DNA of 64,000 nucleotides from Yuukianura sp. NJ FZ-2021 (GCA_046563655.1 CM102284.1:7068001-7132000); one strand, 5' to 3'. Positions 27,501 to 41,198 are shown, numbered from the stretch's first letter. Program-made: numbers and translations. The notes: generated by a model from the sequence alone, not told the origin.

Positions 27501-30500
27501 CTGAACAAGTGAAACCCCCAATTACTGTTTCGGTTTTGCGAAATTCCAAGAAATGTAAGGCCCTCAGTTTTGAAACTTTGGGATTTTGGAAATTTGAAAT
27601 CATTTGTGGGTTAAGTAAGCCCCATTTGAGGTAAGGAACATAAGAGTTTGGAATTCGGCGAATTTCATTGGTTTAGACTTCAGAGCAAACTTTTTTTTTA
27701 TGAGGTTGTACTTACACAGACTTCTTCACAGCGACTGGCAGTTGGAATCCCGCTGGAGTAATTTCGGCACTAAAATCGAAGAAAATGAAAACTTTAGATC
27801 TTTTTTTTTCAAAATCTTATTTAGCAAGCTTCTGAAGATGTCGGGAGTCTCGTTTTTCCAATTTGAGACCTTTGGGAATTCGAGTTCGTGAGATCCAAAA
27901 CATGCTCTTGAAATCTAGTTTCTCGAGTTTCACAATTTCGAATTAGAAAAAAAGACTTGTTGAAAGACAAGTCATTAGGACAAGTTCAGGAGAATTTCAG
28001 CACAGATTTTCAGGAAACTTTAGAAACTTCGCTTCAGGAAAGAAATCAACTTAAAATGGAAAATCAAGATTGTGAGTTTAAATTTAGGAGAAAAAAGTGT
28101 GTTAAGAAAGTATGAAAAAAAAAAGTATTTTGGTACATAAAAAAAAATGGCACATAAAAAAACAATTGGTACAAATAAAAGTTGTGGCTTTCAATAACAA
28201 AAGCCACAATATACAATAAGAAGAAAGGCTGAGCCACCTAATCCGTTCAAGAAATTTAAGATTTACAATGCTGATGAAAAATTTGTGCAATGAAATCCAA
28301 GGGTTGTTGTCAGCTTTACTTTTCAGAATTTCATTTAAGCTAAATCTTGTTTGTTCAGCTTTCATTGAAAAAAATTCAGTTCGTACAAGAAATCAAAATG
28401 TGAAAGTCGTATCATGAGTTTTCATGAGTTTCATTTTTCCATTTAAGTCTTTGTTCACGCTATTTTGTGACAAACAGAAACAAAAGGAAAAAAGAGAAAG
28501 ACTCAAAACAAAAGTGAAAGCAAAAATGCATTCTCCGCTCTTTCTTTTTTGTAAAATGACACTTCAATTCTCTGTCAGTGGTAGATGCGAGACATATTTA
28601 ATCTTCTACGATTTTACAAATTGTTCAACCATTTTTCCATTTTCACTTTCTCTTTTTCACAATTTTTTCCTGTCACAACCAACTTTCACCTCTACAAAAC
28701 TAACTTTCACGCAAGGGCTTTAAACGTCACAAGTTTTGACAGAAAGTCTTTTTGTTTGCGACTCACAAACAAAAAAGTCTTTCTCAGCTGAAAACAAAGT
28801 CCTGACAATCATTTTTTTGGTTCGATTCATCCATGGATCGGTTTCAATTTAATTTTTGGCAGAAATGCTTTCAGAAGTTCTTAAGTGGTGGACTAAAATG
28901 TCACCAGGTGACAAGACGACTATGTCAACTTGGTTGACATTAAAATCATGGCCATCCTGACATGTCAACCCACTCTCTCATGCTCCAGCTCGTAATAAAT
29001 TTAGTAAATTAAAGTGTTTCCTGGTTTCACTTAAGCAAACCTACTTAAAACCCAAAGGAAACGACGAGCTTCAAAGGCTTCCAACTATTAACGAAGCGTG
29101 CGGTTAGGTTGAAATATTAGGTTACGTTAGGCTGAAATGCTACTCTGGTTAGGTTAAAATATTAAGTTAGGTTAGGCTGAAATGCTACGTTAGTTAGGTT
29201 GAAATATTAATTATTCTAGAGAGGAGGACTCACTTGTTCACATTGGCCAAACGTTGGTAAGCCTTTGATGCATCTGAAGTTTGCAAATGGACTTGACTTG
29301 TTCGGCTGCTCATTTTCTCCGTCCTCTCCTCCCTCACCGCCCTGATAAAGTTAATTTTAATTAAACAACTTTAATTAACAATTATGCGAAAATTCTACTT
29401 TTTAAATTTAAAACACGACAATTTTTGGTTCGGATAACAACAAATAATAACAAAAACCAAAAAATTGGAAAAAATCCTTCGGTGACAATTAAAGACAAAA
29501 ATAAAGGGTGCGAACCTAAAACTAAGCTCAAAACGATTTGGCACCGATGAGGCTCTTAACCCATAACAAAGTTTAGGTTAATTGAAATTGTATAAGTACA
29601 AATATAGCAAACTTCAGCATCTAAGAGAACCCCTAACGGTAATAGAACTTCTTCGTTCGTTTAGAGCGAATCAACGCTTTGGTTGAAGTGATGATGGAGG
29701 CTATTGTTCTGTACACCAGCGCTGGTGTTGCTGTCGCGTCCAGCCATAAATGTTGAGTATCCTTGTCTTGACCTTATCAAAGTTCCGCCACATTTGACCT
29801 CCTCCCACTGTCTGCGTGTTCGGCACTTCCCTGTCCACCATTCTGAATGTCAATGCCAGGCAGATGTGAGGAGGTTACTCCCTCTCCCGTCCGAAATTCA
29901 TTTCTTTTTAGTCTTGGTTTCTAATGAAACCTAGACTCCTCCCCAAGTCCAGTATTTTCCCCCACTAGCCCTTGCCATGCTCCTGCAAAGGAACATGACA
30001 AGGCGTTTTTCCCACTCCGCCGTGTGTTTTTCCCCCATCGCCGAATCCCCCAAACCACCTTCCAGAACATTCGAGAACTTTCTGCCTGTGAACAGGCAGA
30101 ATCCCACATCCCACTTCCTCCTGGCAGTCCACTTCCAACAGCAAAGCAGTCCAGTCCTCGTCACTCGTCTCTCCGTCCTCCGCCATCTTCGTTTTCTGGC
30201 CCGTTGGCCACGCCGTGACCCCAACCATCACTGGACAAGACCCACCAAGCACTGGACAAGACCCACCAAGCACTGGACAAGACCCGCAACCACTGGACAG
30301 ACCCACATATTGGTTCTTGTTTCGTTTTTTCATTTATTTGTTCAAATAAACGTTCATTTATTCTATTCCCCATTTTCCGCCCTGTTTTTCCTCTGATTCA
30401 TTTGGTCAGGTCACTTCCGTGACCTGTCCTGACCTCTCATTCCGGGTGCCCTTTGTGGCGGCCCGTGAGGAGCCTACCTCCTCATATGTGGGGCCTCAGA

Positions 30501-33500
30501 CGGGCTATATTTGACCTTTGACCCCAATTTGACCCCATCCCATACCTCACTCCCACATCCTAATTCATTTTTGTTTTTTCAGCTTATTTTTTGGTTCATT
30601 TTTATTTATTTTTTTCGATTTTTTTCAGCTCCCAATTGAGCCAAAGAAGCGAGAGCCACCGATTTTTCTCCTGAGCCACCGTATCTCTTCTGAGCCACCG
30701 ACTTTCTTCTGAACAACCGCCCTCCGAGCGACTACTGAGCCACCGAAGAGCCACCAAGGTCAAATCAAAGGTCAGGTTGTTGTTTATTGCGTTGTAGCGC
30801 CCCACCCCCCGGCGTTTATCCCCCTGCTCCCTTAAAGTGACCCCATTTTTCGCGCTAAATCGCTTTCCCTAAACCTCCCCCGCGCAAAATTTTTTCAAAA
30901 GTTAAAAACTTAGCGTTTTTTTTTACCCCACCCGCCCCACCAAAGCCTAAAACAAGCCCCACCATCCATTAAAGGTTATTAACCTCCCATACGTGGCCTT
31001 CCCCTTCCCTGAACCTTACCTAAAATTGAAATTTCGAAATCCTAACTAATCCCTGTCCAAAATTTTCCAAACTTTCAAACCCTTAGCCGATTTTTCAAAA
31101 TTCAGTATCCCCCCACTGAACAGTACCTAAATTGGCTTTCCCTCACCCTGTAACAGAACTCTGCCCAAATTTTTCTCAAATCCAAAAACTTAGCAAATTT
31201 CGGTTTGTTTATCCCCCCCCCCCCTATTGAAACATAACCCAATTTGGAATTCCCTCACTTCGTACCAAAACGCTGCCCGATTTTTCCCCAAATCAAAACA
31301 CTTAGCAGTTTTTGGCCCAAGTCCCACTGGTTATCCCCCCAACTGCCACATCCAACAACTACAGTCTGCGCCGATCGCAGTCACTTGCGACTTGGGCGCA
31401 ACCAGGTGCGACCATTCCCCAGACTCATCGGATATTTCCCCTATTGCGATTTCTCGCATCCGCACGTCGCAGTACCCTATCTAATCGTCGGAATTCTTCG
31501 GATTTCTCGGATTTTTGAATCCGTAAGCCCCTACCCACCCCAAATTTTCTCAAAGTCGGTGTGTTATGGTTCAACCCTCCCCTCTTTTGGTTGAATTCTT
31601 TCTTTGGTTTTGCGGTGTGTTGGTTTGGCTCTCGTTAGCCAAAGTGACTACTGCACTTTTGGTTTTCGCGTGTTTTTGGCTCATTCTTCATCGGATTTAA
31701 AGGGTTTTGGTGGAATTTGGTGCAAACCATAGCCCCATAGCCTTTCGTCGTTTCTTTAATCCATTTCTCTTTTGTTTCTAGGTTTTTGGTATTAAAATTT
31801 AAAAATAATTTAGTCCCTTAATTAAGAAAACAATTAATTTTTTTTGTCCAAATTCTAATTCTCCCTATATTCCAGAAAAGTATCCCCGCTCCCCCCCGAA
31901 TGATTGAAACGATCGTGTGGCTAATCCTGGTCCTGGTACTCACTGTCGTCTACGAAGTCCTACGAACCATTTTGGAACGATTCCTCCTCCGACAACTGAG
32001 ACGGCTGTTCCCCCAGTAGCAAGTTACTTCGAGTAATTGTTGAAAACCCCCCGCCCCTGACCCCCACCCATGTGGAACTTTCTCTACTGGTTGCGATTGT
32101 CCCTGATCTTAGTCCTTTCCCTGGTTGGCATCTATTTGGGTGCTCATCTCATTTTTGGCTGTTACTTCGTCCTAACCTCAGCAACTAAGAGTTGTTTTTA
32201 CGGAACCCTAGCCACTGTCATTGACTTTCTGGTTCTCCACCTGTTCCCCATTTACCGATTGCGACAATACCCAAACGAATACCAGATCTTTCTGAAAGTC
32301 CTACCCTATACCGAAGCCTACTATTACATTGCCCTAATAGTACGGTTAAACCACTACCATTGGAGTTGGTTCGGTCCCTGGTTCAGAACCCTTCTCGTCA
32401 TCTTTGCCCGCTACCAAGGACTACTTGTCATTGACGAGTATTAACCCCCCCCTTCCCAAAAATGGTGTGGTTTAGTACCCACTACGCTCCGGAGATCCAA
32501 CCCCAACCCCGCCAAAGACGAAACAGTCAGACAAACACTGTTTCTATCCCAGTCCCAGCCCCCTCAACCCAATGTACGTCGATTCCAGTACCCACGAGCA
32601 TTCCCCGCCCAATAACCCCTACGCCCAATGCATCCCCCAGAGCAGCAGGAAGTTTCCCCAATGCAGCCCAAATGGTGTCCCCTCCCCAAGCTCATGCCAA
32701 TCAACAAGATTCCCGCCCTGACATCAAAGTTTTCAAATACATTCGAAAATATGATGGGAGCAGTGATCCAGCTGAATTCCTTGCCCGTTACAAGTACGAT
32801 CTAGCTGACTCTGGGTTTGGTCCCAAAGGAGCCCTTTGCCATTTCGACCGAGTAGTAACTGGAGTTGCTCAGTCTTGGTTTGCATCCGTGTGGCCAAGAC
32901 TACGCGAACGAATCGAAACTCCCAATGTCAACTACGAAGAAATCTGGAACGACTTCGAATTGCGGTTCGTCGCCCACTTTTCCCTACGAGAACGAGCTGA
33001 AGAGCTTCGTAACATCAACAAAGCCCTACGCTACAAACTGGGTGACAACATCGACAAGTACGTCGCAGAAAAGCTGGAACTAATGTCCAAGATCAACCCC
33101 TACATGAGCGAAGAATCCAAAGTCAAGCGTCTTGTCCGTGGTTTACCCCCAGATTTAGAACAATCTTTCGTTCTCCAGTCCATCCCCACCACTGCTGATT
33201 TCCAAAAGCTTCTGCGTAGAGTCGCAGAAGTTCATACCCGCCCCAAAGAAGTTTCAGCCCAAGTCCTTACCCTCCATGCGCTGGAATCTGGAAATAACCC
33301 CCCACCCCAGCCCTATTACCCCCCAGTTGGTACACAACCAGCTCCCCAGTACCCAGTACAGCAGCCAGTCTCTCAGTACCAAACCCAGACCCTAATTCCC
33401 GCAGCACAAGCAGCCGGACAGACACAGCCACAACGTAGACGTGCAGAAGACGGACGTCCTATTTGCGACTTTTGTAGTCGCACAGGCCACATCCAACGTT

Positions 33501-36500
33501 ATTGCCACAACTGGTGGAGAAGCCAAGGCAAGGATCCACTCGCAAACGGATGTCACCCCCTCAAACCCCGTCCCACACAGCCGCAAGGTTATGGTCAGTT
33601 CCCACAGCAGCCTGTGTCCTATGCTCAGGCTGTTGCCCCCCAGACTTCTGTGGTCTTTAAACCATCCCCTGGACCCTCCAATGCCCCGCAAGCTGCTCCA
33701 ATCCCACAAAACCCAGATGACCATTGGGGTCCCCGGATTATCCAAGGCTTTTCAGCCATGACCGATCTCCTCAAGAAGATTGGAGATGCCATTGTTCCCA
33801 AGCCCCCGGAAAACTAATAGCGCTGTCGTTGCAGGGACGACAGCCGCTTCCAGTCCCCACCCCTACCATGACTTTACCACCAAATAATGCCCAACCAAGA
33901 ACCAAAAGACGTAAAAACAAAGAACCAACTTTCCCCATTTACAAGAACTTGTCGGCTTTTGGCAGAAAGCCCAGTTCTCAAAGTCCAGTTATTCCCCAAG
34001 AGTTGTACAACAAACTCCAACTAGCCCTAGACCAAAAATTGTCCTGTCCCAAATGTTGTTCCCACAATGACCGTACTTTACCCTTAGTCGTTGGGGAGGC
34101 AAGTCCACCCTCTCCACACGATTTTCCCGCCGTTTCCAGACCCAAATCCCGTTGTGTGCCTTCCGATGTTTCCGTAAAGCCTGTCGTTTCCGTAGCCATT
34201 GGTACTTCAGACCTTTGTGTTTTCCCCCCATTGAACCCCCCAGCCGTTATGCCCCCTCCATGCCCCGAGTTTTCGTTGACCTCCAGATTTGGGATCCATC
34301 CGAACAATGTGAGCCGAGTTGATGATTGGGTTGCTACAGCCAGTCCAGACGCAGACGCAGTTTCCCCCGTATTTCCGCCCCAAGCCCCAATGTCCCCAGA
34401 CCCAGACTCTGACCTACCCTGTGGTGTTTCCGCCGCGAATGTAATAGCCGCCCTCAATGCCCCAAAGTATTCCACATTCCACATTGACGTCGTCTTTGCC
34501 TCAACCACCATCCCAGTCCTTTGCGATAGCGGAGCATCGCTCTGTTGTGTCCATCCCAGTTTTCTGACCAAATTCCCCAGCGTTGTTTCCAATGTGAGCA
34601 ATGTTCAACCCGTAAGGGTTAAGCTGTCTTTTGGAAGTTACATTCCGTGCGATTCCCTCCAATCAGTCGACATTGAGTTTTCCATTGCTGGCGTCCCCTT
34701 CAAATATCCCTTCCATATTTTCCCCCATTTGTCTAACGACATAGTCATCGGTTCGGATTTTCTCCGTTCCGAGCGGCTTCTCCTTGACCCCCTTAACGAA
34801 CGCCTTGTACGAGGTGAACTCCCATGCACTGATCTCAGAAATGAGTACGTGCTAGTAAAGAAGTCCGAATTTAATGCCCTCCACAAGCTGTCTCTGTCCG
34901 ATCCGTCGGATAGAGATGGTTCAGATCCCTCCAGTTCACCCCCCGAACCCCCAGTCCCCAAACCCAGAAAAGTAAAGCCCAAACCCCCTAAAGATTCTCC
35001 CAAGTGTCAGCCCAAACCCCAGAGTTCGTCCGAAAATTCCGATTCTTCCAACCCCAGTACTCTACAGGACTCTGAAGCATCCTTCGTCGATAATTCCAAT
35101 TTGTCCCAAAGTGCCACTTCGCCTGACTTTCTCCGGTTGGCTCGTTCCTACATCATCAATCCACGGACCATGAAACGCGTCAGCGTTCGGTCAGATACTC
35201 CGTTTACCGGGGATATCCTAATTTCTCCCAGAAAAGAGCTGCAATATGCTCGTCACGTCGCCATAGGAAATTCAATTTCCCACTTACACGATGGCACAGG
35301 AGTTACCTATCTCTGGAACTTGAGCGACCGGCCAGTCAAACTTCTACAAAATATCTCCATTGGCACCTTCGAACCCTTTGCAGAATCCTCTGTGATCTGT
35401 AACCTTGACGAATTCGACCCTGTACATAACAAATCCTCCCAGTCTTCCCTCCCAGCGCATTCGATCTGTAATTTTGTCGTCAATGATGACGACGATGCCG
35501 AAATAACGGCTCTGAGACTTCAAAAACGGATCGATGCGTTCCAAATTTCCAAAACCCTAACCCCCGAACAGCAAGAGAAAATGAAAAATTTCCTTGTTTC
35601 CAACATGGATGTTTTCAACTTTGACCCCAAAACCCTAGGACGAACTCATCTCGTTACCCACAAGATAGACACTGGAGATGCCCCGCCCATTCGTACCCAT
35701 CCCCACAGAACTGGTTTCACTGAAAGACGTGAAATCCAGAAAGAAGTTGAAAGACTTCTAGACCTTGGAGCGATTACCCCTAGTGACAGTCCCTGGTGTT
35801 CCCCCGTCCTTCTGGTTAAAAAGCCAGACAATAGCTGGAGGTTCTGCGTGGATTTCCGAAAACTTAACGAAGTTACCCGAAAAGACTCCTACCCCCTCCC
35901 CAGAATAGACGATACCCTTGATCGTCTCAACGGCGCCAAGTACTTCTCTTCGATGGACTGCGACCAAGCCTACTACCAAATCGAGGTTGACCCCCAAGAT
36001 CGCGAAAAGACAAGTTTCGTAACCCCCGACGGACAATATGAGTTTGTCGTCATGCCCTTTGGTCTGTGTAATGCCCCCAGTACTTGGCAGCGTCTCATAG
36101 ACAATGTCTTGGGACGTTTAAAATGGACAGTTGCCCTAATCTACCTAGACGACATTACCTGTTTTTCCCGGACATTTGAGGAGCACCTTGACCACCTTTC
36201 CCAAATCTTCTCTTGCCTTCGACGTGCTGGACTCAGTCTAAAGCCGAAGAAGTGCAATTTTGGAGAAGATTCCCTCAAATTCCTTGGCCATATTATTTCC
36301 CGCGACGGAATTTCTGTTGACCCCGCCAAAACCCAAGCAGTTCGAGAGTTTCCCACCCCCAAAAATTCCCGAGGTGTAAGATCGTTCGTGAGTCTGTGTA
36401 GTTACTACCGCAGATTTGTAGAGAATTTTGCGAACATTGCCCGTCCCCTCCATGTTCTCTGCGCAAAAACCCGAACTGACCCCTTTACTTGGCCCCCAGA

Positions 36501-39500
36501 AGCTGAAAAGGCTTTCCAAACCCTCAAAGACAAATTGACCTCAGCCCCTGTCTTAGCGTTTCCTGATGAGGAAGCGGAGACAGCGGTTCATTGCGACGCG
36601 TCAGGACTTGGTTTTGGTGCTACGTTGACCCAGATGCAAGATGGACAAGAAAGAGTTGTTGCCTATGCGTCCCGTGCCCTTTCCCCCTCCGAATCCAAAT
36701 TTGGTACTCCCCAGCTCGAAATGAAAGCGTTCGTTTGGGCAGTTGAAAAATTCCGTCCCTATCTCTACGGCCGACACTTCAAAGTTGTTACAGACCACCA
36801 TTCCCTCTGTAACATGCTAAAATTCAAAGATCCGTATGGACAAATCTCCCGTTGGTCCCTAGCCCTCCAACCCTACGACTTTACGGTGATACATAGAAAC
36901 GGAAGAGTTCACACAGACGCGGATCCCCTTTCCCGTAACCCCGTTGACCCAGCCCCATCCGACACTGACCATTTAGCGATTGAGCACCATTTGTTGGCGC
37001 TCAACGTTTCCCCAGATGCCCCCCGAAGAGTTCGTGACACCAAACTTCGTGAGCTCCAACTTAAAGAGCCGGATTGGTCACCGATAATCGAGTATCTTAA
37101 AGCCGAGCAGTCTGGTAAACAACATTCCCTTAAAGAGCCGAAATACGTACGTGAGTATAGCCTACGAAATGGTGTCTTATACAGAATTAATTATTCCGAG
37201 TTTGGTAACTTGTGGCGTTTAGTTCTTCCTAAGTCCCTTAGAAAATCCACCATGGAATCGGCGCATACAGACTCCCTAAGTCACCTCGGACTCCACAAAA
37301 CTTGGCATTTACTCCGTTCCCGCTTCTTCTGGCCTCGGATGTACCGTGACGTTGTCAAATTCGTCAATTCGTGTCACGAATGCCAAATCCACAATCGTCG
37401 GTACTTTCCCCTTCCCCCAAATAGCGTCGGTCTTGACGTTCCCTCTGTCCCCTTCCAATCCCTAGCGCTGGACTACATTGGCCCCTTCCCCTTAACGGCG
37501 AGAAGAAACACGTACATCTTGACCATTGTTGACCTCCACACCCGCTATGTGGAAGCCTGGCCAGTCCCCGCAGCAACTTCTGCTCACGCCATCAAGGTCC
37601 TGACGAAACATGTCCTCTACCGACACGGAGTCCCCAAAATCCTTCTCTCCGATCGTGGTTCGGTTTTCCAGTCGGAAGAATTCGCTGAATTCTGTAACCA
37701 CCACGCCATTGAACACCGCAGTACGACTTCCTATCATCCCCAGTCAAATGGCGTTTGTGAGCGTCACAACGGCACTGTCAAATCCGTCATAGCGAAATTC
37801 GTTTCCGACAATCACAAAGATTGGGACCTCCACGTTCCCCGTGCCGTCTTCTCCCTGAATTGTTCCGTCCACAAAACTACGACTTTCTCTGCGTACTTCT
37901 TGGTTTACGGTCGTGAGCCTGTTCTTCCTGTTGACAAGCTCTTCCTTTTGCCCCCTGACGAGTTACCCCAAGACGATTATTTAGATCGTTTATTTGAGGC
38001 AAATAATGTCGCTCATGAGCTGTCTCGAGAACAACAAATCTTTCGTGCCCAAGCCCAAACGCAAGTCCACTACCCTAAATATGTCGTCGGGATGAAAGTC
38101 CTTGTCAGAAATTTCCAAAGGAAAAAGTCCCATGTCAAAAAGTTCACCCGCAAATGGAATGGTCCCTACAAAATTTTAGAAGTCTACGCAAACTCCACCG
38201 TTCGTATCACTTCCCTTGTCCCCCATAAGCCCTACGAGACAGTTGTCAACATCCAGCGTTTAAAACCCTATAGGACGCGTGAGGAAAGCTCCTCTGCGTC
38301 AGCGGTCCGGGTGCCCTTTGTGGCGGCCCGTGAGGAGCCTACCTCCTCATACAGAGTGATAATGTACATCCATCTTTCATGCTAAAACAGAGTATGGTTT
38401 CGGAATTTGGAAGGAATAGGAAGTTGAAAACAGTTTAGGGTAAATACGTACGAATCAATGGTGACGAGGATTGGTTTAGGAAAGGTCAAGGAGGTCAATG
38501 GGGTACAGGACTTCTCAATCCACCTTCGTACAGCTTGGTAAAGCGTCTTCAAGGAATTCTGTGAATGTTCGAATCTCAATTAATCAAGGTGAAGAGTACG
38601 CTGGATATTTGAACAAATACCCAGGTAAAATTATAAGCATAAATATGTATAAAATCAACTGTTCCCTATGTAATAATAATATGCTTAAGTTTGCTATATT
38701 TGTACTTATACAATTTCTATAAGAATTAAACTTTGTTATGGGTTAAGAGCCTCATCGGTGCCAAATCGTTTTGAGCTTTGTTTTAGGTTCGCACCCTTTA
38801 TTTTTGTCTTTAATTGTCACCGAAGGATTTTTTCCAATTTTTTGGTTTTTGTTATTTTATAATTTTTTTTTCTTCGTGTAAGTTTTTTTTTACTTGACTT
38901 CTTTAAGTTTGAAAAAATGGCGCTGTCACTTCAATTAATAATCCATACCAGCATAAATATGTATAAAATCAACTGTTACCTGTGTAAGAAACTTCGTTTT
39001 AATTAATGATTTAGATTTTAACATTTTTATTTTATTTTGCTTAGTTTAGTGTTAGTGTTTAACGATAAAGTTTGTACTCTATGCACTATCTAAGCTAGCA
39101 TTTACGTGACTCAATAACTTCCTGACATCGTTTGAGTTCGTCGAGTGCTTCCAGATGGCATGGAGTGAATGTTGCCGTTGTGAGTAGCTTGGTTATATCC
39201 AAACTGGAAATCGCCACGCCATTAAGAGTTTTGCCTCTGCTAAGTAACACGTAAGCTATTGCCTTCGCGAACAACGACTTGCCCAAGTTAGTGACAGCCT
39301 TTTCGCAAGTTACACCCTGCATCTTGTGGGTATTTATGGACCAGGCTGCAATGATTGGAAGCTGCTTTCGTTGAATCTTGGTCTGATGATTGGCAAAAAA
39401 CTCAACCCTTGCTGGTGTAATAGTGCATTCATTGTTACTTGAACCACGGATTTCATGATCAAATTTAATTGTGATTGATTCTGGCATATCGTCCTCCGTC

Positions 39501-41198
39501 AGTGGCTTTTCACGAAGTGCTGGCCAACGAATTCTAGTAATAGTTCCCGTAGCTCCATGGACGATGTGATTTGGAAATCGAATTCACCACGCAGAGTTTG
39601 GATTTGATGAGTCATTTCGTACCGCTTGCCCTGTTTCGGGTGCATCGTCTTGTCACAAAAGTTGCAAGGAGTGGTGGAAAAGACACTGATTTGCTTTTCA
39701 TAAGATTGGCGTAGTGTTATTCCAATTCTTGCATCATTTGTTCCCTCCATGGTCGCCTTTAAAATTCCGAATTGTAAGTTTCCAAACAATTTAAGCTATA
39801 TTTGTTGTTACGTTTTCAGTTGCTCTTTGGTCCTGGTTATGAGAGGTTGCATTGTCTTGAAGTGGGGCACATTTTTTGTTTAACTTCGCTCGTTTTAGAT
39901 TTGTATGGCGGAGATTTGCATCAACTTGCATATCTGCAAACCAAAATATTAAACGACGATACCCGTAGTTTCAAATTTGAAACATTACCTGTTCCATTAT
40001 TTCTTCGTTTTAATGCCCGATAACACTTGTCACAAACTCTGGTCGCTTGGAATTAAAACGGCTTGGACCGTTCGGAATTATTTTTCCATTGGTTGCAAGC
40101 TCCGCATTTCCAGTTGAGCATATTACATTGTGAGCTTTCGACAGCATCCATGGTGCACAATTGCATTCTAAGTTATCCGAACTGTACTAATTTAACTTAT
40201 TCGAACTGTAGTAACCTAACTTTGTAATTTATCTTTATGGCAATGGGGCTGTTGGTACGATATAGACAAAAACTGCATATAACAGGTATGAATGTTGCCA
40301 AACATATTGCAGCGAAAGGAAGTGGCAACTTGTTACTCAGAAATGTTAAAATGGTTGCAGAAGAATGCTTCGTTGTTATAGTGAATTTTAAAAATATCGG
40401 TTCCATTACAAAATTTTGAAATGCAATTTTCCGAAATACTTATCCGAGTTTGTGTATTTAAATACTGCAATCCTATAGGAAATTTGCTGCTGATTCATAT
40501 TTTCGTGGTCTCTAGTTGGGTCGAGCCGTATTTCCCTTAGCAACGGGCCGTAAAACCCTGTTGCGATGGAATTTGATCATTGGAAACATCACCAATCGAT
40601 TCAGAACCCTCGAAATATGTCAGATCCAAATTTTCAGATTTTTGTTAATTAAATTGCCTGAGTTATTAATTAAAAACCGGAAAAGTCGACGTTCAAATTC
40701 CATTCCTGAGGTTTACCTCATAGTAGGTTGCTAAGGGCAACCAACTAATTCGTGTTTGTTGTCACCTCAGGAAAAACAAAGCACATTTTGGAGTGACCTA
40801 GTTGTGAGTAAGGCTTGAATAATTTAAAACGCAATTGTTTTGATTGTAGAAAGTCAAAAACTAAAGCGCAGAGCATCGATTATGTTAAAAATTAATACAT
40901 ATAAAGATATGAATCATATATGAATTGTAGAAGTGAATTTATATGAAAACAACAACAGTGGGGGACTTACGTAATCTCGGAGACATTTGGCTTCTTCCTG
41001 TGCTAAGACCAGATGAACTCGGTAATTCGCATCTGAACTTGAGTTTATCTCCAGTCCTGGGGAGGTTGTGTCAAGGTCACGGTCAGAGCTGTAAGCTCTA
41101 CCGTGAGCCCTTGATGAAAAATGGCCAAGCGAAAGGAGAAAGTAAATAAAAATCGAAACTCGGACAACTTGTTGAAAAAATTCCAACTTTCTCCTCAT
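21503..41198 (-). CDS. Receptor tyrosine kinase with Cys-rich N-terminus, FN3-like ectodomain and split kinase domain (Torso-like)
   Basis: Signal-peptide exon 41198-40971 ([14 protein letters not shown]) splices in phase 0 to 27769-27716 (CRNYSSG..CEEVC). FN3-like exons ([25 protein letters not shown]); [23 protein letters not shown] at ~25150-25090; [15 protein letters not shown], ~100-aa kinase insert, [39 protein letters not shown]; Ser-rich tail. RTK identity is secure; the Torso subfamily call is inference. Confidence 0.85.
29069..29271. repeat. TTAGG-rich tandem segment bounded by short inverted repeats (MITE-like)
   Basis: About 2.5 copies of GGTTAGGTTRAAATATTARGTTASGTTAGGCTGAAATGCTAC (29102-29210). 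Bounded by GCTTCAAAGGCTTCCAAC and GTTGGTAAGCCTTTGATGC, which are near reverse complements. Confidence 0.5.
29446..29620. repeat. Left copy of ~175-bp inverted repeat
   Basis: Near-identical reverse complement of 38681-38856 (e.g. CCTTCGGTGACAATTAAAGACAAAAATAAAGGGTGCGAACC, GATTTGGCACCGATGAGGCTCTTAACCCATAACAAAGTTTA). Confidence 0.9.
29865..30486 (+). repeat. 5' LTR (622 bp, TG...TA termini)
   Basis: Begins after the TSD and ends at the sequence shared with the element's 3' end. Contains AATAAA (30345-30350), a 21-bp tandem repeat and two terminal hairpins. Followed by a PBS-like TGG. Confidence 0.85.
30229..30306 (+). repeat. 21-bp tandem repeat in LTR (CACTGGACAAGACCCACCAAG x ~3.7)
   Basis: Two exact units and two variant units read directly from the sequence. 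Confidence 0.9.
30489..30504 (+). other. Putative primer-binding site (imperfect tRNA-Pro type)
   Basis: TGGGGCCTCAGACGGG lies 2 nt after the LTR end and matches 12/16 to TGGGGGCTCGTCCGGG, the complement of the eukaryotic tRNA-Pro 3' end. Confidence 0.45.
31566..31700 (+). CDS. Retroelement leader sORF-1, 44-aa hydrophobic peptide (not in ORF track)
   Basis: [44 protein letters not shown]. Opened by the only ATG between 30489 and 31899, in strong context (gttATGg). Confidence 0.45.
   Translation: MVQPSPLLVEFFLWFCGVLVWLSLAKVTTALLVFACFWLILHRI
31900..32019 (+). CDS. Retroelement leader sORF-2, 39-aa single-TM peptide with Arg-rich amphipathic tail (not in ORF track)
   Basis: [39 protein letters not shown]. 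Preceded by a C-tract and a strong acceptor-like site (CTAAT..CTCCCTATATTCCAG, 31875). Confidence 0.65.
   Translation: MIETIVWLILVLVLTVVYEVLRTILERFLLRQLRRLFPQ
32070..32444 (+). CDS. Retroelement leader ORF-3, 124-aa multi-pass membrane protein of unknown family
   Basis: Uninterrupted ATG ORF with several hydrophobic/aromatic segments. Ends 17 nt before the gag ATG and has no internal ATG in any + frame. Confidence 0.7.
   Translation: MWNFLYWLRLSLILVLSLVGIYLGAHLIFGCYFVLTSATKSCFYGTLATVIDFLVLHLFPIYRLRQYPNEYQIFLKVLPYTEAYYYIALIVRLNHYHWSWFGPWFRTLLVIFARYQGLLVIDEY
32462..33817 (+). CDS. gag: Gag (capsid + CCHC zinc knuckle)
   Basis: [15 protein letters not shown] / GVAQSWF capsid-like region, LVRGLPP, and zinc knuckle [14 protein letters not shown]. 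Strong start context aaaATGg. Confidence 0.92.
   Translation: MVWFSTHYAPEIQPQPRQRRNSQTNTVSIPVPAPSTQCTSIPVPTSIPRPITPTPNASPRAAGSFPNAAQMVSPPQAHANQQDSRPDIKVFKYIRKYDGSSDPAEFLARYKYDLADSGFGPKGALCHFDRVVTGVAQSWFASVWPRLRERIETPNVNYEEIWNDFELRFVAHFSLRERAEELRNINKALRYKLGDNIDKYVAEKLELMSKINPYMSEESKVKRLVRGLPPDLEQSFVLQSIPTTADFQKLLRRVAEVHTRPKEVSAQVLTLHALESGNNPPPQPYYPPVGTQPAPQYPVQQPVSQYQTQTLIPAAQAAGQTQPQRRRAEDGRPICDFCSRTGHIQRYCHNWWRSQGKDPLANGCHPLKPRPTQPQGYGQFPQQPVSYAQAVAPQTSVVFKPSPGPSNAPQAAPIPQNPDDHWGPRIIQGFSAMTDLLKKIGDAIVPKPPEN
33724..38385 (+). CDS. pol: Pol polyprotein (aspartic protease, RT, RNase H, integrase with GPY/F motif)
   Basis: LCDSGAS protease; [20 protein letters not shown] and [18 protein letters not shown]ase H; H-x5-H...CHEC zinc finger, LDYIGP, SDRGSVF, SNGVCER and KWNGPY integrase. 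No internal stops. The ORF runs through the LTR remnant and stops in flanking DNA. Confidence 0.95.
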   Translation: MGSPDYPRLFSHDRSPQEDWRCHCSQAPGKLIALSLQGRQPLPVPTPTMTLPPNNAQPRTKRRKNKEPTFPIYKNLSAFGRKPSSQSPVIPQELYNKLQLALDQKLSCPKCCSHNDRTLPLVVGEASPPSPHDFPAVSRPKSRCVPSDVSVKPVVSVAIGTSDLCVFPPLNPPAVMPPPCPEFSLTSRFGIHPNNVSRVDDWVATASPDADAVSPVFPPQAPMSPDPDSDLPCGVSAANVIAALNAPKYSTFHIDVVFASTTIPVLCDSGASLCCVHPSFLTKFPSVVSNVSNVQPVRVKLSFGSYIPCDSLQSVDIEFSIAGVPFKYPFHIFPHLSNDIVIGSDFLRSERLLLDPLNERLVRGELPCTDLRNEYVLVKKSEFNALHKLSLSDPSDRDGSDPSSSPPEPPVPKPRKVKPKPPKDSPKCQPKPQSSSENSDSSNPSTLQDSEASFVDNSNLSQSATSPDFLRLARSYIINPRTMKRVSVRSDTPFTGDILISPRKELQYARHVAIGNSISHLHDGTGVTYLWNLSDRPVKLLQNISIGTFEPFAESSVICNLDEFDPVHNKSSQSSLPAHSICNFVVNDDDDAEITALRLQKRIDAFQISKTLTPEQQEKMKNFLVSNMDVFNFDPKTLGRTHLVTHKIDTGDAPPIRTHPHRTGFTERREIQKEVERLLDLGAITPSDSPWCSPVLLVKKPDNSWRFCVDFRKLNEVTRKDSYPLPRIDDTLDRLNGAKYFSSMDCDQAYYQIEVDPQDREKTSFVTPDGQYEFVVMPFGLCNAPSTWQRLIDNVLGRLKWTVALIYLDDITCFSRTFEEHLDHLSQIFSCLRRAGLSLKPKKCNFGEDSLKFLGHIISRDGISVDPAKTQAVREFPTPKNSRGVRSFVSLCSYYRRFVENFANIARPLHVLCAKTRTDPFTWPPEAEKAFQTLKDKLTSAPVLAFPDEEAETAVHCDASGLGFGATLTQMQDGQERVVAYASRALSPSESKFGTPQLEMKAFVWAVEKFRPYLYGRHFKVVTDHHSLCNMLKFKDPYGQISRWSLALQPYDFTVIHRNGRVHTDADPLSRNPVDPAPSDTDHLAIEHHLLALNVSPDAPRRVRDTKLRELQLKEPDWSPIIEYLKAEQSGKQHSLKEPKYVREYSLRNGVLYRINYSEFGNLWRLVLPKSLRKSTMESAHTDSLSHLGLHKTWHLLRSRFFWPRMYRDVVKFVNSCHECQIHNRRYFPLPPNSVGLDVPSVPFQSLALDYIGPFPLTARRNTYILTIVDLHTRYVEAWPVPAATSAHAIKVLTKHVLYRHGVPKILLSDRGSVFQSEEFAEFCNHHAIEHRSTTSYHPQSNGVCERHNGTVKSVIAKFVSDNHKDWDLHVPRAVFSLNCSVHKTTTFSAYFLVYGREPVLPVDKLFLLPPDELPQDDYLDRLFEANNVAHELSREQQIFRAQAQTQVHYPKYVVGMKVLVRNFQRKKSHVKKFTRKWNGPYKILEVYANSTVRITSLVPHKPYETVVNIQRLKPYRTREESSSASAVRVPFVAAREEPTSSYRVIMYIHLSC
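33808..33844 (+). promoter_or_regulatory. Putative -1 ribosomal frameshift signal (G_GAA_AAC + stem-loop)
   Basis: Heptamer 33808-33814 directly precedes the gag TAA. After a 7-nt spacer comes a perfect 8-bp stem GCTGTCGT/ACGACAGC. pol is in the -1 frame relative to gag. Confidence 0.75.
38306..38351 (+). repeat. 3' LTR remnant (46 bp, identical to end of 5' LTR)
   Basis: TCCGGGTGCCCTTTGTGGCGGCCCGTGAGGAGCCTACCTCCTCATA is identical to 30441-30486 and is followed by the CAGA TSD. Confidence 0.9.
38681..38856. repeat. Right copy of ~175-bp inverted repeat
   Basis: Reverse complement of 29446-29620 with few differences. Confidence 0.9.
39095..40151 (-). mobile_element. Internally deleted Helitron-like RepHel remnant (N-terminal Cys motifs + PIF1 helicase C-terminus)
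   Basis: ~39563-39095 encodes [60 protein letters not shown] (PIF1 motifs V-VI). Upstream are broken Cys motifs (KCGAC, VCDKC, PCNFC) with stops or frameshift, fused directly to the helicase tail. Rep and helicase motifs I-IV are missing. Confidence 0.7.

Follow-up and report, generated by a model that had tools for sequence, protein, structure and literature searches.

The DNA analysed here is a 64,000-nt stretch from Yuukianura sp. NJ FZ-2021 (GCA_046563655.1 CM102284.1:7068001-7132000), referred to below as the window, and window coordinates are used throughout. At 29865-38351 it contains one copy of a multi-copy Ty3/gypsy long terminal repeat (LTR) retrotransposon of an animal genome, which has a 3' deletion. 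The element is otherwise an ordinary gypsy retrotransposon, and what is unusual is the AUG-purged, tricistronic leader that precedes gag. Nearly all start codons are missing from this leader, and those that are present open three small open reading frames (ORF1, ORF2 and ORF3), the last of which belongs to a conserved protein family. The reading that we favour, and to which we give somewhat better than even chances, is that the genomic RNA of this gypsy element is polycistronic, with the small ORFs and Gag reached by leaky scanning in the manner of rice tungro bacilliform virus (RTBV). Extra membrane proteins are probably made from the genomic RNA of the element, judging from the predicted products. 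Accessory ORFs ahead of gag are known in Ty3/gypsy elements, and here they form what is predicted to be a structurally different membrane cassette. The features from the end of the 5' LTR to gag are as follows.

30486-30521, + strand, mini-upstream ORF (mini-uORF) of 11 codons with the weak context catATGt; the ATG straddles the LTR end and the frame overlaps the putative primer-binding site

30489-31565, + strand, ATG-free leader of 1077 nt, C-rich and G-poor (ATG counts, repeat search)

31566-31700, + strand, ORF1, 44 aa, of uncertain coding status, hydrophobic over its whole length, start gttATGg (ORF scan, grand average of hydropathy or GRAVY)

31701-31899, + strand, ORF1-ORF2 spacer of 199 nt, with an AT-rich core and an oligo-C end

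31900-32019, + strand, ORF2, 39 aa, weak context cgaATGa (ORF scan, GRAVY)

32070-32444, + strand, ORF3, 124 aa, hydrophobic, predicted all-helical and conserved, weak context cccATGt (homologue P0002)

32462-33817, + strand, gag, 451 aa, carrying Retrotrans_gag (Pfam) and a single CCHC knuckle, start aaaATGg

ATG depletion upstream of gag

In the interval 30489-32464, the + strand holds ATGs at 31566, 31900, 32070 and 32462 and no others. An earlier note on this DNA had listed the same four positions between the primer-binding site and gag, and our recount returned them. That inventory had overlooked one further ATG, at 30486, three bases before the start of the interval. From the base composition 22.5 ATGs would be expected in 30489-32464, and 18.3 under a first-order Markov model. 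None of 2000 dinucleotide shuffles of the interval (mean 18.3, sd 3.6) contained four or fewer, and composition, which the note had named as a possible cause of the scarcity, thus does not explain it. The leader proper (30489-31565) contains no ATG against a shuffle mean of 7.8, and none of the 2000 shuffles was ATG-free. ATG has the lowest observed/expected ratio of the 64 trinucleotides (0.17; the next lowest is GGG with 0.49). The ratio for CAT, which is the ATG of the other strand, is 1.06, and the depletion is therefore strand-specific. It ends exactly at gag, with 19 ATGs in gag (15.7 expected) and 60 in pol (52.1 expected). Over the wider span 29999-32461 (2463 nt), which is counted from the last ATG of the LTR at 29995, there are four ATGs compared with 22.3 expected.

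The absence of ATGs extends into the coding part of the interval. Besides the start codons, no ATG occurs in any frame across 31569-32461, and the three spacers hold none. ORF1-3 contain no internal Met, when about 2.1 would be expected at the Met frequency of gag/pol, and no out-of-frame ATG, when synonymous resampling with gag/pol codon usage gave a mean of 3.2 (P(0) = 0.023). No comparable avoidance was found by synonymous resampling in gag and pol themselves.

The coding strand of the whole element (29865-38351) has a strong excess of C over G (GC skew -0.13 to -0.46), unlike the flanks. This skew lowers the expected ATG count, and the shuffles took it into account.

The leader is also repetitive. 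At 30887-31315 there is a degenerate tandem array of about four ~110-nt units, the ends of which resemble AAATTTTT..AAAACTTAGC, and GAGCCACCG is repeated three times at 30653-30749. These repeats could be enhancer, packaging or protein-binding sites.

For comparison, 41 distantly related gypsy contigs from public assemblies were used, in which the first long ORF was picked automatically and is unverified. Among the 23 loci having at least 800 nt before the first long ORF, three have an upstream kilobase with no more than 0.35 of the expected ATGs, namely L012 (0 against 7.9 expected), L014 (1 against 8.2) and L006 (4 against 13.1). Long leaders purged of AUGs therefore seem to recur among Ty3/gypsy elements. 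No ORF cassette comparable to ORF1-3 was found in L012, L014 or L006, and the special feature of the present element is the retained AUGs that open ORFs.

L012 and L014 come from one public assembly, and their leaders (L012:234-1239 and L014:288-1317) are about 1 kb long; neither has small ORFs, and the context of the gag start is good in both.

The small ORFs

ORF1, ORF2 and ORF3 (N termini MVQPSP, MIETIV and MWNFLY) do not overlap one another and are followed by Gag, the stop codon of ORF3 lying only 17 nt ahead of the gag AUG. The ORF scan agrees with the arrangement and the lengths of 44, 39 and 124 aa given in the earlier note, which had also described all three products as strongly hydrophobic. 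The GRAVY values in frame are 1.60, 1.10 and 0.73, respectively, compared with 0.66 and 0.78 in the other two + frames for ORF1, -1.05 and -0.93 for ORF2, and 0.11 and 0.09 for ORF3. As the other frames score far lower, the hydrophobicity of ORF2 and ORF3 is frame-specific. That of ORF1 is partly a matter of composition, since its other frames are hydrophobic too, and to this extent the description needed amendment.

ORF2 has T at 59 % of its second codon positions and is laid out as an N-terminal hydrophobic helix (approximately residues 4-17) followed by Tyr18 and an Arg-rich tail. The amphipathic moment of this tail is not significant, the same value being reached by 39 % of shuffles.

The start contexts of ORF2 (cgaATGa) and ORF3 (cccATGt) are weak, with C at -3 and no G at +4, and that of gag (aaaATGg) is strong. 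The C content of the 25 nt before the ATGs of ORF2, ORF3 and gag lies at the 91st, 99.8th and 85th percentile of the leader, respectively. Both the contexts and the preceding oligo-C tracts are thus as the note had them. ORF1 departs from the order in which upstream starts are weak; its start, gttATGg, combines G at +4 with a purine at -3, which makes the context good. The context pattern expected for leaky scanning, to which the note had drawn attention, is therefore seen for ORF2, ORF3 and gag, with ORFs that are free of ATGs, and does not extend to ORF1.

The spacer between ORF1 and ORF2 includes an AT-rich island at 31750-31850 (76-82 % AT), with ATTAAA at 31791 and an oligo-C tract at the end of the spacer.

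ORF3 as a conserved protein

A phmmer search of ORF3 against 1,835,955,588 representative proteins gave three matches at a cut-off of E <= 0.001. Of these, P0002, which is 112 aa long, can be aligned with residues 4-104 of ORF3 (E 6.1e-8). In BLASTP, 31 of 65 residues are identical (48 % over 65 aa), and the motifs LAT..D.LVL, RLR, LKVL and E.YYY are common to the two proteins. The Smith-Waterman score of ORF3 against P0002 is 170, which is far over the scores of 2000 shuffles of ORF3 (mean 40.9, maximum 70, z 17.7), and the match is therefore not due to composition. As in ORF3, the only Met of P0002 is at position 1 and there is no internal Met. The comparison establishes ORF3 as a member of a conserved family of hydrophobic, predicted helical proteins. 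At third codon positions, ORF3 (C 0.41, G 0.15) is similar to gag and pol (C 0.34-0.36, G 0.14-0.15). The AlphaFold2 model of ORF3 has three helices, with a mean predicted local distance difference test (pLDDT) score of 71 and a predicted template modelling (pTM) score of 0.35.

Conservation and structure prediction had been named in the earlier note as checks on its three ORFs. Conservation was found for ORF3, in the homologue P0002 and in sister copies that are free of gaps (see below), and the searches made here returned no homologue of ORF1 or ORF2. Structure prediction gave ORF3 the three helices of the AlphaFold2 model (pLDDT 71).

The other two phmmer matches, P0001 and P0003, are repetitive receptor-like proteins of 2496-3171 aa, in which 6-7 repeated stretches match residues 68-103 of ORF3 and nothing else of it; they were set aside as spurious. 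A metagenome contig, L001, matched over 26 residues (62 %); this eukaryotic contig is GC-rich and unrelated, and the match, around which there are no retroelement genes, was attributed to chance. Apart from L001, tblastn of ORF1-3 and P0002 against the 42 loci retrieved gave nothing below E 0.8. A word-indexed protein search with ORF3 returned seven candidates, none at E <= 1, and the same kind of search with an ORF3+P0002 profile recovered P0002 alone among 217 candidates. ORF3 and Gag had no relative among viral contigs, nor did the ORF3+P0002 profile among viral and prokaryote-genome contigs. The ESM Atlas gave no usable match to ORF3. A lead from P0002 to the MARVEL domain in the ESM Atlas (0.77-0.78) was dropped, as shuffled proteins often score likewise and neither Pfam nor PDB supported it.

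These findings bear on the possibility that nothing upstream of gag is functional and that the open frames there arose by chance in a non-coding leader rich in T and C. The window holds a single, 3'-deleted copy, and T-rich sequence readily yields hydrophobic frames, both of which are compatible with such an origin. However, the match to P0002 (z 17.7; E 6e-8 among 1.84 billion proteins) is not expected of a chance frame, an open frame of 124 codons has a probability of about 0.5 % at this composition by a hand estimate, diverged sister copies are gap-free across ORF3, and the depletion is specific to ATG and to one strand. We regard this explanation as very improbable overall, and as far as ORF3 is concerned it is strongly disfavoured.

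Sister copies in public DNA runs

Contigs from four public DNA runs (two coded organisms, two studies) were aligned to 29600-38700. The runs yielded 245, 606, 837 and 144 matching contigs with identities from >99 % to <90 %, and it is this number and range of identities that mark the element as a member of a multi-copy family. Two sister contigs, both approximately 87 % identical to the present copy, cross the ORF3 span with no gaps (32064-32452 with 49 differences, and 32125-32420 with 37 differences). A leader contig of similar divergence (31004-31356) has 45 differences and nine gaps. Only three differences inside ORF3 were itemised (32291, 32294 and 32300), all at third positions and read as synonymous. 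One sister contig (31473-31760) crosses ORF1 without gaps. In one contig, six gap letters fall in four places (31762, 31783, 31837 and 31891), all of them in the ORF1-ORF2 spacer.

One contig of run X2 joins 32440 to 32845 via three other letters, and so represents a copy without the gag start and the first 128 codons.

Proposed expression from a single RNA

The proposal that best accounts, in our view, for these features is as follows. In the full-length RNA, a very long 5' region would have been cleared of AUGs by selection, and the AUGs left would be the starts of the mini-uORF, the three small hydrophobic ORFs and gag. Ribosomal 40S subunits would scan linearly from the cap; a share of the ribosomes would initiate at ORF2 and a share at ORF3, and the remainder would reach the gag AUG with its optimal context. 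Partial initiation at ORF2 and ORF3 is proposed because their contexts are weak and because no further AUG is present in any ORF or spacer in any frame. Leaky scanning would need exactly this clearance of AUGs inside and between the ORFs. ORF1 might be translated efficiently, with reinitiation across the 199-nt spacer, or might be a gatekeeper uORF. ORF3, and perhaps ORF2, would be accessory membrane proteins of the element, ORF2 being predicted as a single N-terminal membrane helix followed by a Tyr and an Arg-rich tail. By analogy with the second short ORF (sORF2) of the MDG1 group (see below), ORF3 and ORF2 may act at cell membranes, in particle assembly, exit or cell-to-cell transfer. Any role in budding, fusion or host antagonism, as put forward in the earlier note, is pure inference.

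[quoted passage not shown] We put this forward tentatively and consider it rather unlikely.

Several points weigh against expression of all three ORFs by leaky scanning. The good Kozak context of ORF1 would trap most scanning ribosomes, and more than 2 kb is an unusually long distance to scan. Evidence for ATG avoidance within the ORFs is moderate, most of the signal coming from the non-coding leader; ORF3 taken by itself gives P = 0.06 in the resampling and 0.20 when its own codons are permuted. The membrane role of the ORFs is a prediction from hydropathy, and for the ORF3 family neither Pfam nor PDB gave a match at E <= 10. P0002 is the sole homologue of ORF3 in the libraries searched, and it is a single-member cluster without a name or a genomic context. 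The leaders of L012 and L014, with 0 and 1 ATG in the kilobase before gag, imply that an AUG-free leader alone points only to scanning to gag and not to extra genes.

The remaining adverse points concern ORF1 and ORF2, for which no homologues were found in the searches. Judged by an approximate hand calculation from the base composition, their lengths (44 and 39 codons) are unremarkable for ATG-opened frames of this sequence. The third-position composition of ORF1 is unlike that of gag and pol, and part of its hydrophobicity is compositional. The coding status of ORF1 and ORF2 is uncertain and depends on three things: their ATGs were retained, their hydrophobicity is frame-specific (strongly so in ORF2), and no indels are listed within them.

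Alternatively, the AUG purge may serve only scanning to gag, with ORF3 a real accessory gene and ORF1 and ORF2 incidental or purely regulatory uORFs, which would be tolerated or would throttle gag and whose peptides would be functionless. That ATG-free leaders without small ORFs exist in other gypsy contigs (L012, L014 and L006) is in keeping with this, as are the lack of homologues and the unremarkable lengths, the composition of ORF1 in both its hydrophobicity and its codons, and the frequency (39 %) at which shuffles reach the moment of the ORF2 tail. However, to have kept exactly these ATGs while 2.4 kb was purged suggests that they were retained for a reason. The hydrophobicity of ORF2 is confined to its frame (1.10 as against -1.05 and -0.93, with T at 59 % of second positions), and the indels listed in sister copies hit the ORF1-ORF2 spacer and spare the ORFs. 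We consider this account possible but on balance unlikely.

The good context of ORF1 also speaks against simple leakiness, and it can be asked whether the small ORFs are expressed by another route, such as a short, internally polyadenylated transcript, a spliced or subgenomic RNA, reinitiation, or internal entry at the oligo-C tracts. The ATTAAA at 31791 in the AT-rich spacer is reminiscent of the Drosophila element 412, where sORF1 and sORF2 are separated by a premature poly(A) site (10.1101/2025.03.14.642691), and by this analogy the island between ORF1 and ORF2 might be an internal poly(A) site. C-rich tracts stand ahead of the ORF2, ORF3 and gag starts, and a distance of 17 nt from the ORF3 stop to the gag AUG would suit some of these routes. 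Yet the most striking feature of the region, the lack of AUGs from ORFs and spacers in every frame, is needed by none of these routes, and we judge them improbable. Leaky scanning from the genomic RNA thus remains the reading that we prefer.

Comparison with known systems

The closest precedent is the MDG1 group of Drosophila (412, mdg1, Stalker, Blood and Tabor), in which a pair of short reading frames, sORF1 and sORF2, lies before gag and is translated from the full-length RNA (10.1101/2025.03.14.642691), so that the precedent cited in the earlier note does exist. sORF1 (~110 aa) is a nuclear helix-turn-helix protein and sORF2 (~70 aa) a single-pass, FAST-like membrane protein that has been connected with the passage of capsids from follicle cells into the oocyte independently of Env (10.1101/2025.03.14.642691). 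In the same study, 105 sORF2/FAST-like ORFs were found in arthropod gypsy consensus sequences, the published screen covering only single-pass, myristoylated proteins in such consensus sequences (10.1101/2025.03.14.642691). The criteria used for sORF2/FAST-like proteins are a length of 60-210 aa, a single transmembrane segment, an ectodomain of 10-50 aa, the motif MGxxxS/T, a polybasic patch (at least three K/R within 15 residues after the helix) and a Tyr just after the helix.

The present element resembles the MDG1 group in having at least one membrane-type protein predicted before gag, and the present copy, being 3'-deleted, is env-less. ORF2, and ORF2 only, has a Tyr (Y18) after the helix and three Arg (R22, R27 and R31) within 15 residues of it. 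However, there are three hydrophobic ORFs of 44, 39 and 124 aa here and not a pair of ~110 and ~70 aa. ORF1-3 all lack the MGxxxS/T motif and a 10-50-aa ectodomain, ORF2 being practically ectodomain-free, ORF1 and ORF2 fall below the lower length limit of 60 aa, and both the hydropathy profile and the AlphaFold2 model show ORF3 with several hydrophobic helices. None of the three ORFs therefore qualifies as sORF2/FAST-like, and the published description and criteria set the MDG1 sORFs apart from ORF1-3. In the main text of Voichek et al. (10.1101/2025.03.14.642691), the term leaky scanning does not occur.

For the proposed mechanism, the nearest parallel is RTBV, in which ribosomes have been shown experimentally to leak through approximately 900 AUG-free nt of ORFs I and II to reach ORF III (PMC5902531). 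RTBV and the badnaviruses (Caulimoviridae) are reverse-transcribing, like the present element, and in both cases consecutive ORFs precede the ORF for capsid and polymerase. The upstream ORFs lack internal AUGs in both, and here there are no additional ATGs across 31569-32461. RTBV has suboptimal upstream starts and a better main start; of the starts here, those of ORF2 and ORF3 are weak and that of gag is strong, but that of ORF1 is good. RTBV differs in being a plant pararetrovirus whose leader contains many short ORFs that are bypassed by ribosome shunting, whereas the leader here is AUG-free. Moreover, RTBV ORF I starts at AUU, and scanning in RTBV was demonstrated by experiment, whereas here the case is made from sequence alone. 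The upstream proteins of RTBV are not known to be small hydrophobic proteins.

Two viral mRNAs offer looser parallels. The tricistronic S1 mRNA of avian reovirus directs the synthesis of three proteins (p10, p17 and sigmaC) by leaky scanning and related routes (PMC2978376). Its likeness to the present case is that several proteins are made from one mRNA, as is proposed here. The first product of the S1 mRNA is a small membrane fusogen. The virus has a double-stranded RNA genome, and the ORFs partly overlap, unlike ORF1-3. Reovirus FAST proteins are single-pass with an acylated ectodomain, and ORF1-3 have neither property. In human immunodeficiency virus 1 (HIV-1), vpu and env are translated from a dicistronic mRNA (PMC5902531). 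As proposed here, a small membrane accessory protein stands ahead of a structural gene, and the downstream gene is reached past an upstream AUG. The HIV-1 mRNA is spliced and subgenomic, its downstream gene is env and not gag, and there is no sequence relation. Vpu is a membrane protein. No prior description of leaky scanning through the pre-gag ORFs of an LTR retrotransposon was found in the literature searched.

The purging of AUGs predicts a way in which a single RNA could serve for Gag and several other proteins, and one protein of the cassette, ORF3, is conserved enough to be traced by sequence. If the proposal is true, retrotransposons use a wider range of membrane proteins, and leaky-scanning polycistrons extend from plant pararetroviruses to animal Metaviridae. 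An AUG-free stretch that ends at gag and holds a few retained start codons would then be a signature by which further examples could be sought.

Structure and genomic setting of the element

The other features of the element are the following.

29861-29864, + strand, 5' copy of the target site duplication, CAGA (read from sequence)

29865-30486, + strand, 5' LTR, 622 bp, with a terminal inverted repeat; the last 46 nt are repeated at 38306-38351

33868-38385, + strand, pol, an ORF of 1505 aa for protease, reverse transcriptase, RNase H and integrase (Pfam), lying in frame -1 with respect to gag; the natural 3' end was lost to the deletion after 38305

38306-38351, + strand, remnant of the 3' LTR, last 46 bp, a 100 % repeat of 30441-30486

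38352-38355, + strand, 3' copy of the target site duplication, CAGA (read from sequence), so that a 4-bp duplication flanks the element

The 5' LTR begins with TGTGAGGAGGT and ends with ACCTCCTCATA, and it contains AATAAA at 30345 and a 21-nt tandem repeat at 30229-30306. The Retrotrans_gag match in Gag has E 8e-8 (Pfam). By residue, the Pfam domains of Pol are RVT_1 at 650-810, RT_RNaseH at 875-1003, Integrase_H2C2 at 1121-1177 and rve at 1195-1291, and the protease is represented by a weak match to RVP_2 at 209-310 (E 0.035). The element thus has the organization of Ty3/gypsy retrotransposons, with an LTR, a short target site duplication, and gag followed by pol in the order protease (weak match), reverse transcriptase, RNase H and integrase. 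The closest relatives of Pol among 4061 protein matches are no more than 56 % identical, and the sources include arachnids and a nematode. There is no second copy of the element within the 64-kb window. No tRNA gene is present in the window either, and the primer-binding site is putative.

The deletion took everything from pol codon 1480 up to the final 46 bp of the 3' LTR. In run X2, one contig continues beyond 38305 into other sequence, which confirms that the present copy is deleted at that point. The LTR remnant, the Pfam domains and this contig agree with the earlier identification of the element as a gypsy element with a 3' deletion.

The neighbouring genes are of animal type (a tyrosine kinase, a RabGAP-TBC gene and a potassium-channel pore). 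A 162-aa frame downstream of the element (39098-39583, - strand) has no Pfam match at E <= 0.001. By eye we had presumed a resemblance to the C-terminal part of the helicase of a rolling-circle transposon, to which Pfam gave no support.

An empty site, in which 29860 is joined to 38352 with four shared (ambiguous) letters, is present in all four runs. The explanation is either a polymorphic insertion or the existence of flanking-repeat copies that carry no interruption. The arms of an inverted repeat of 176 bp (96 % identity) lie at 29446-29620 and 38681-38856, which is 245 and 329 bp from the retrotransposon. Given that this repeat brackets the copy and that, in contigs of each of the four runs, the two flanks are joined at high depth with the element missing, insertion of the gypsy copy seems to have taken place inside a repeated host element with terminal inverted repeats.

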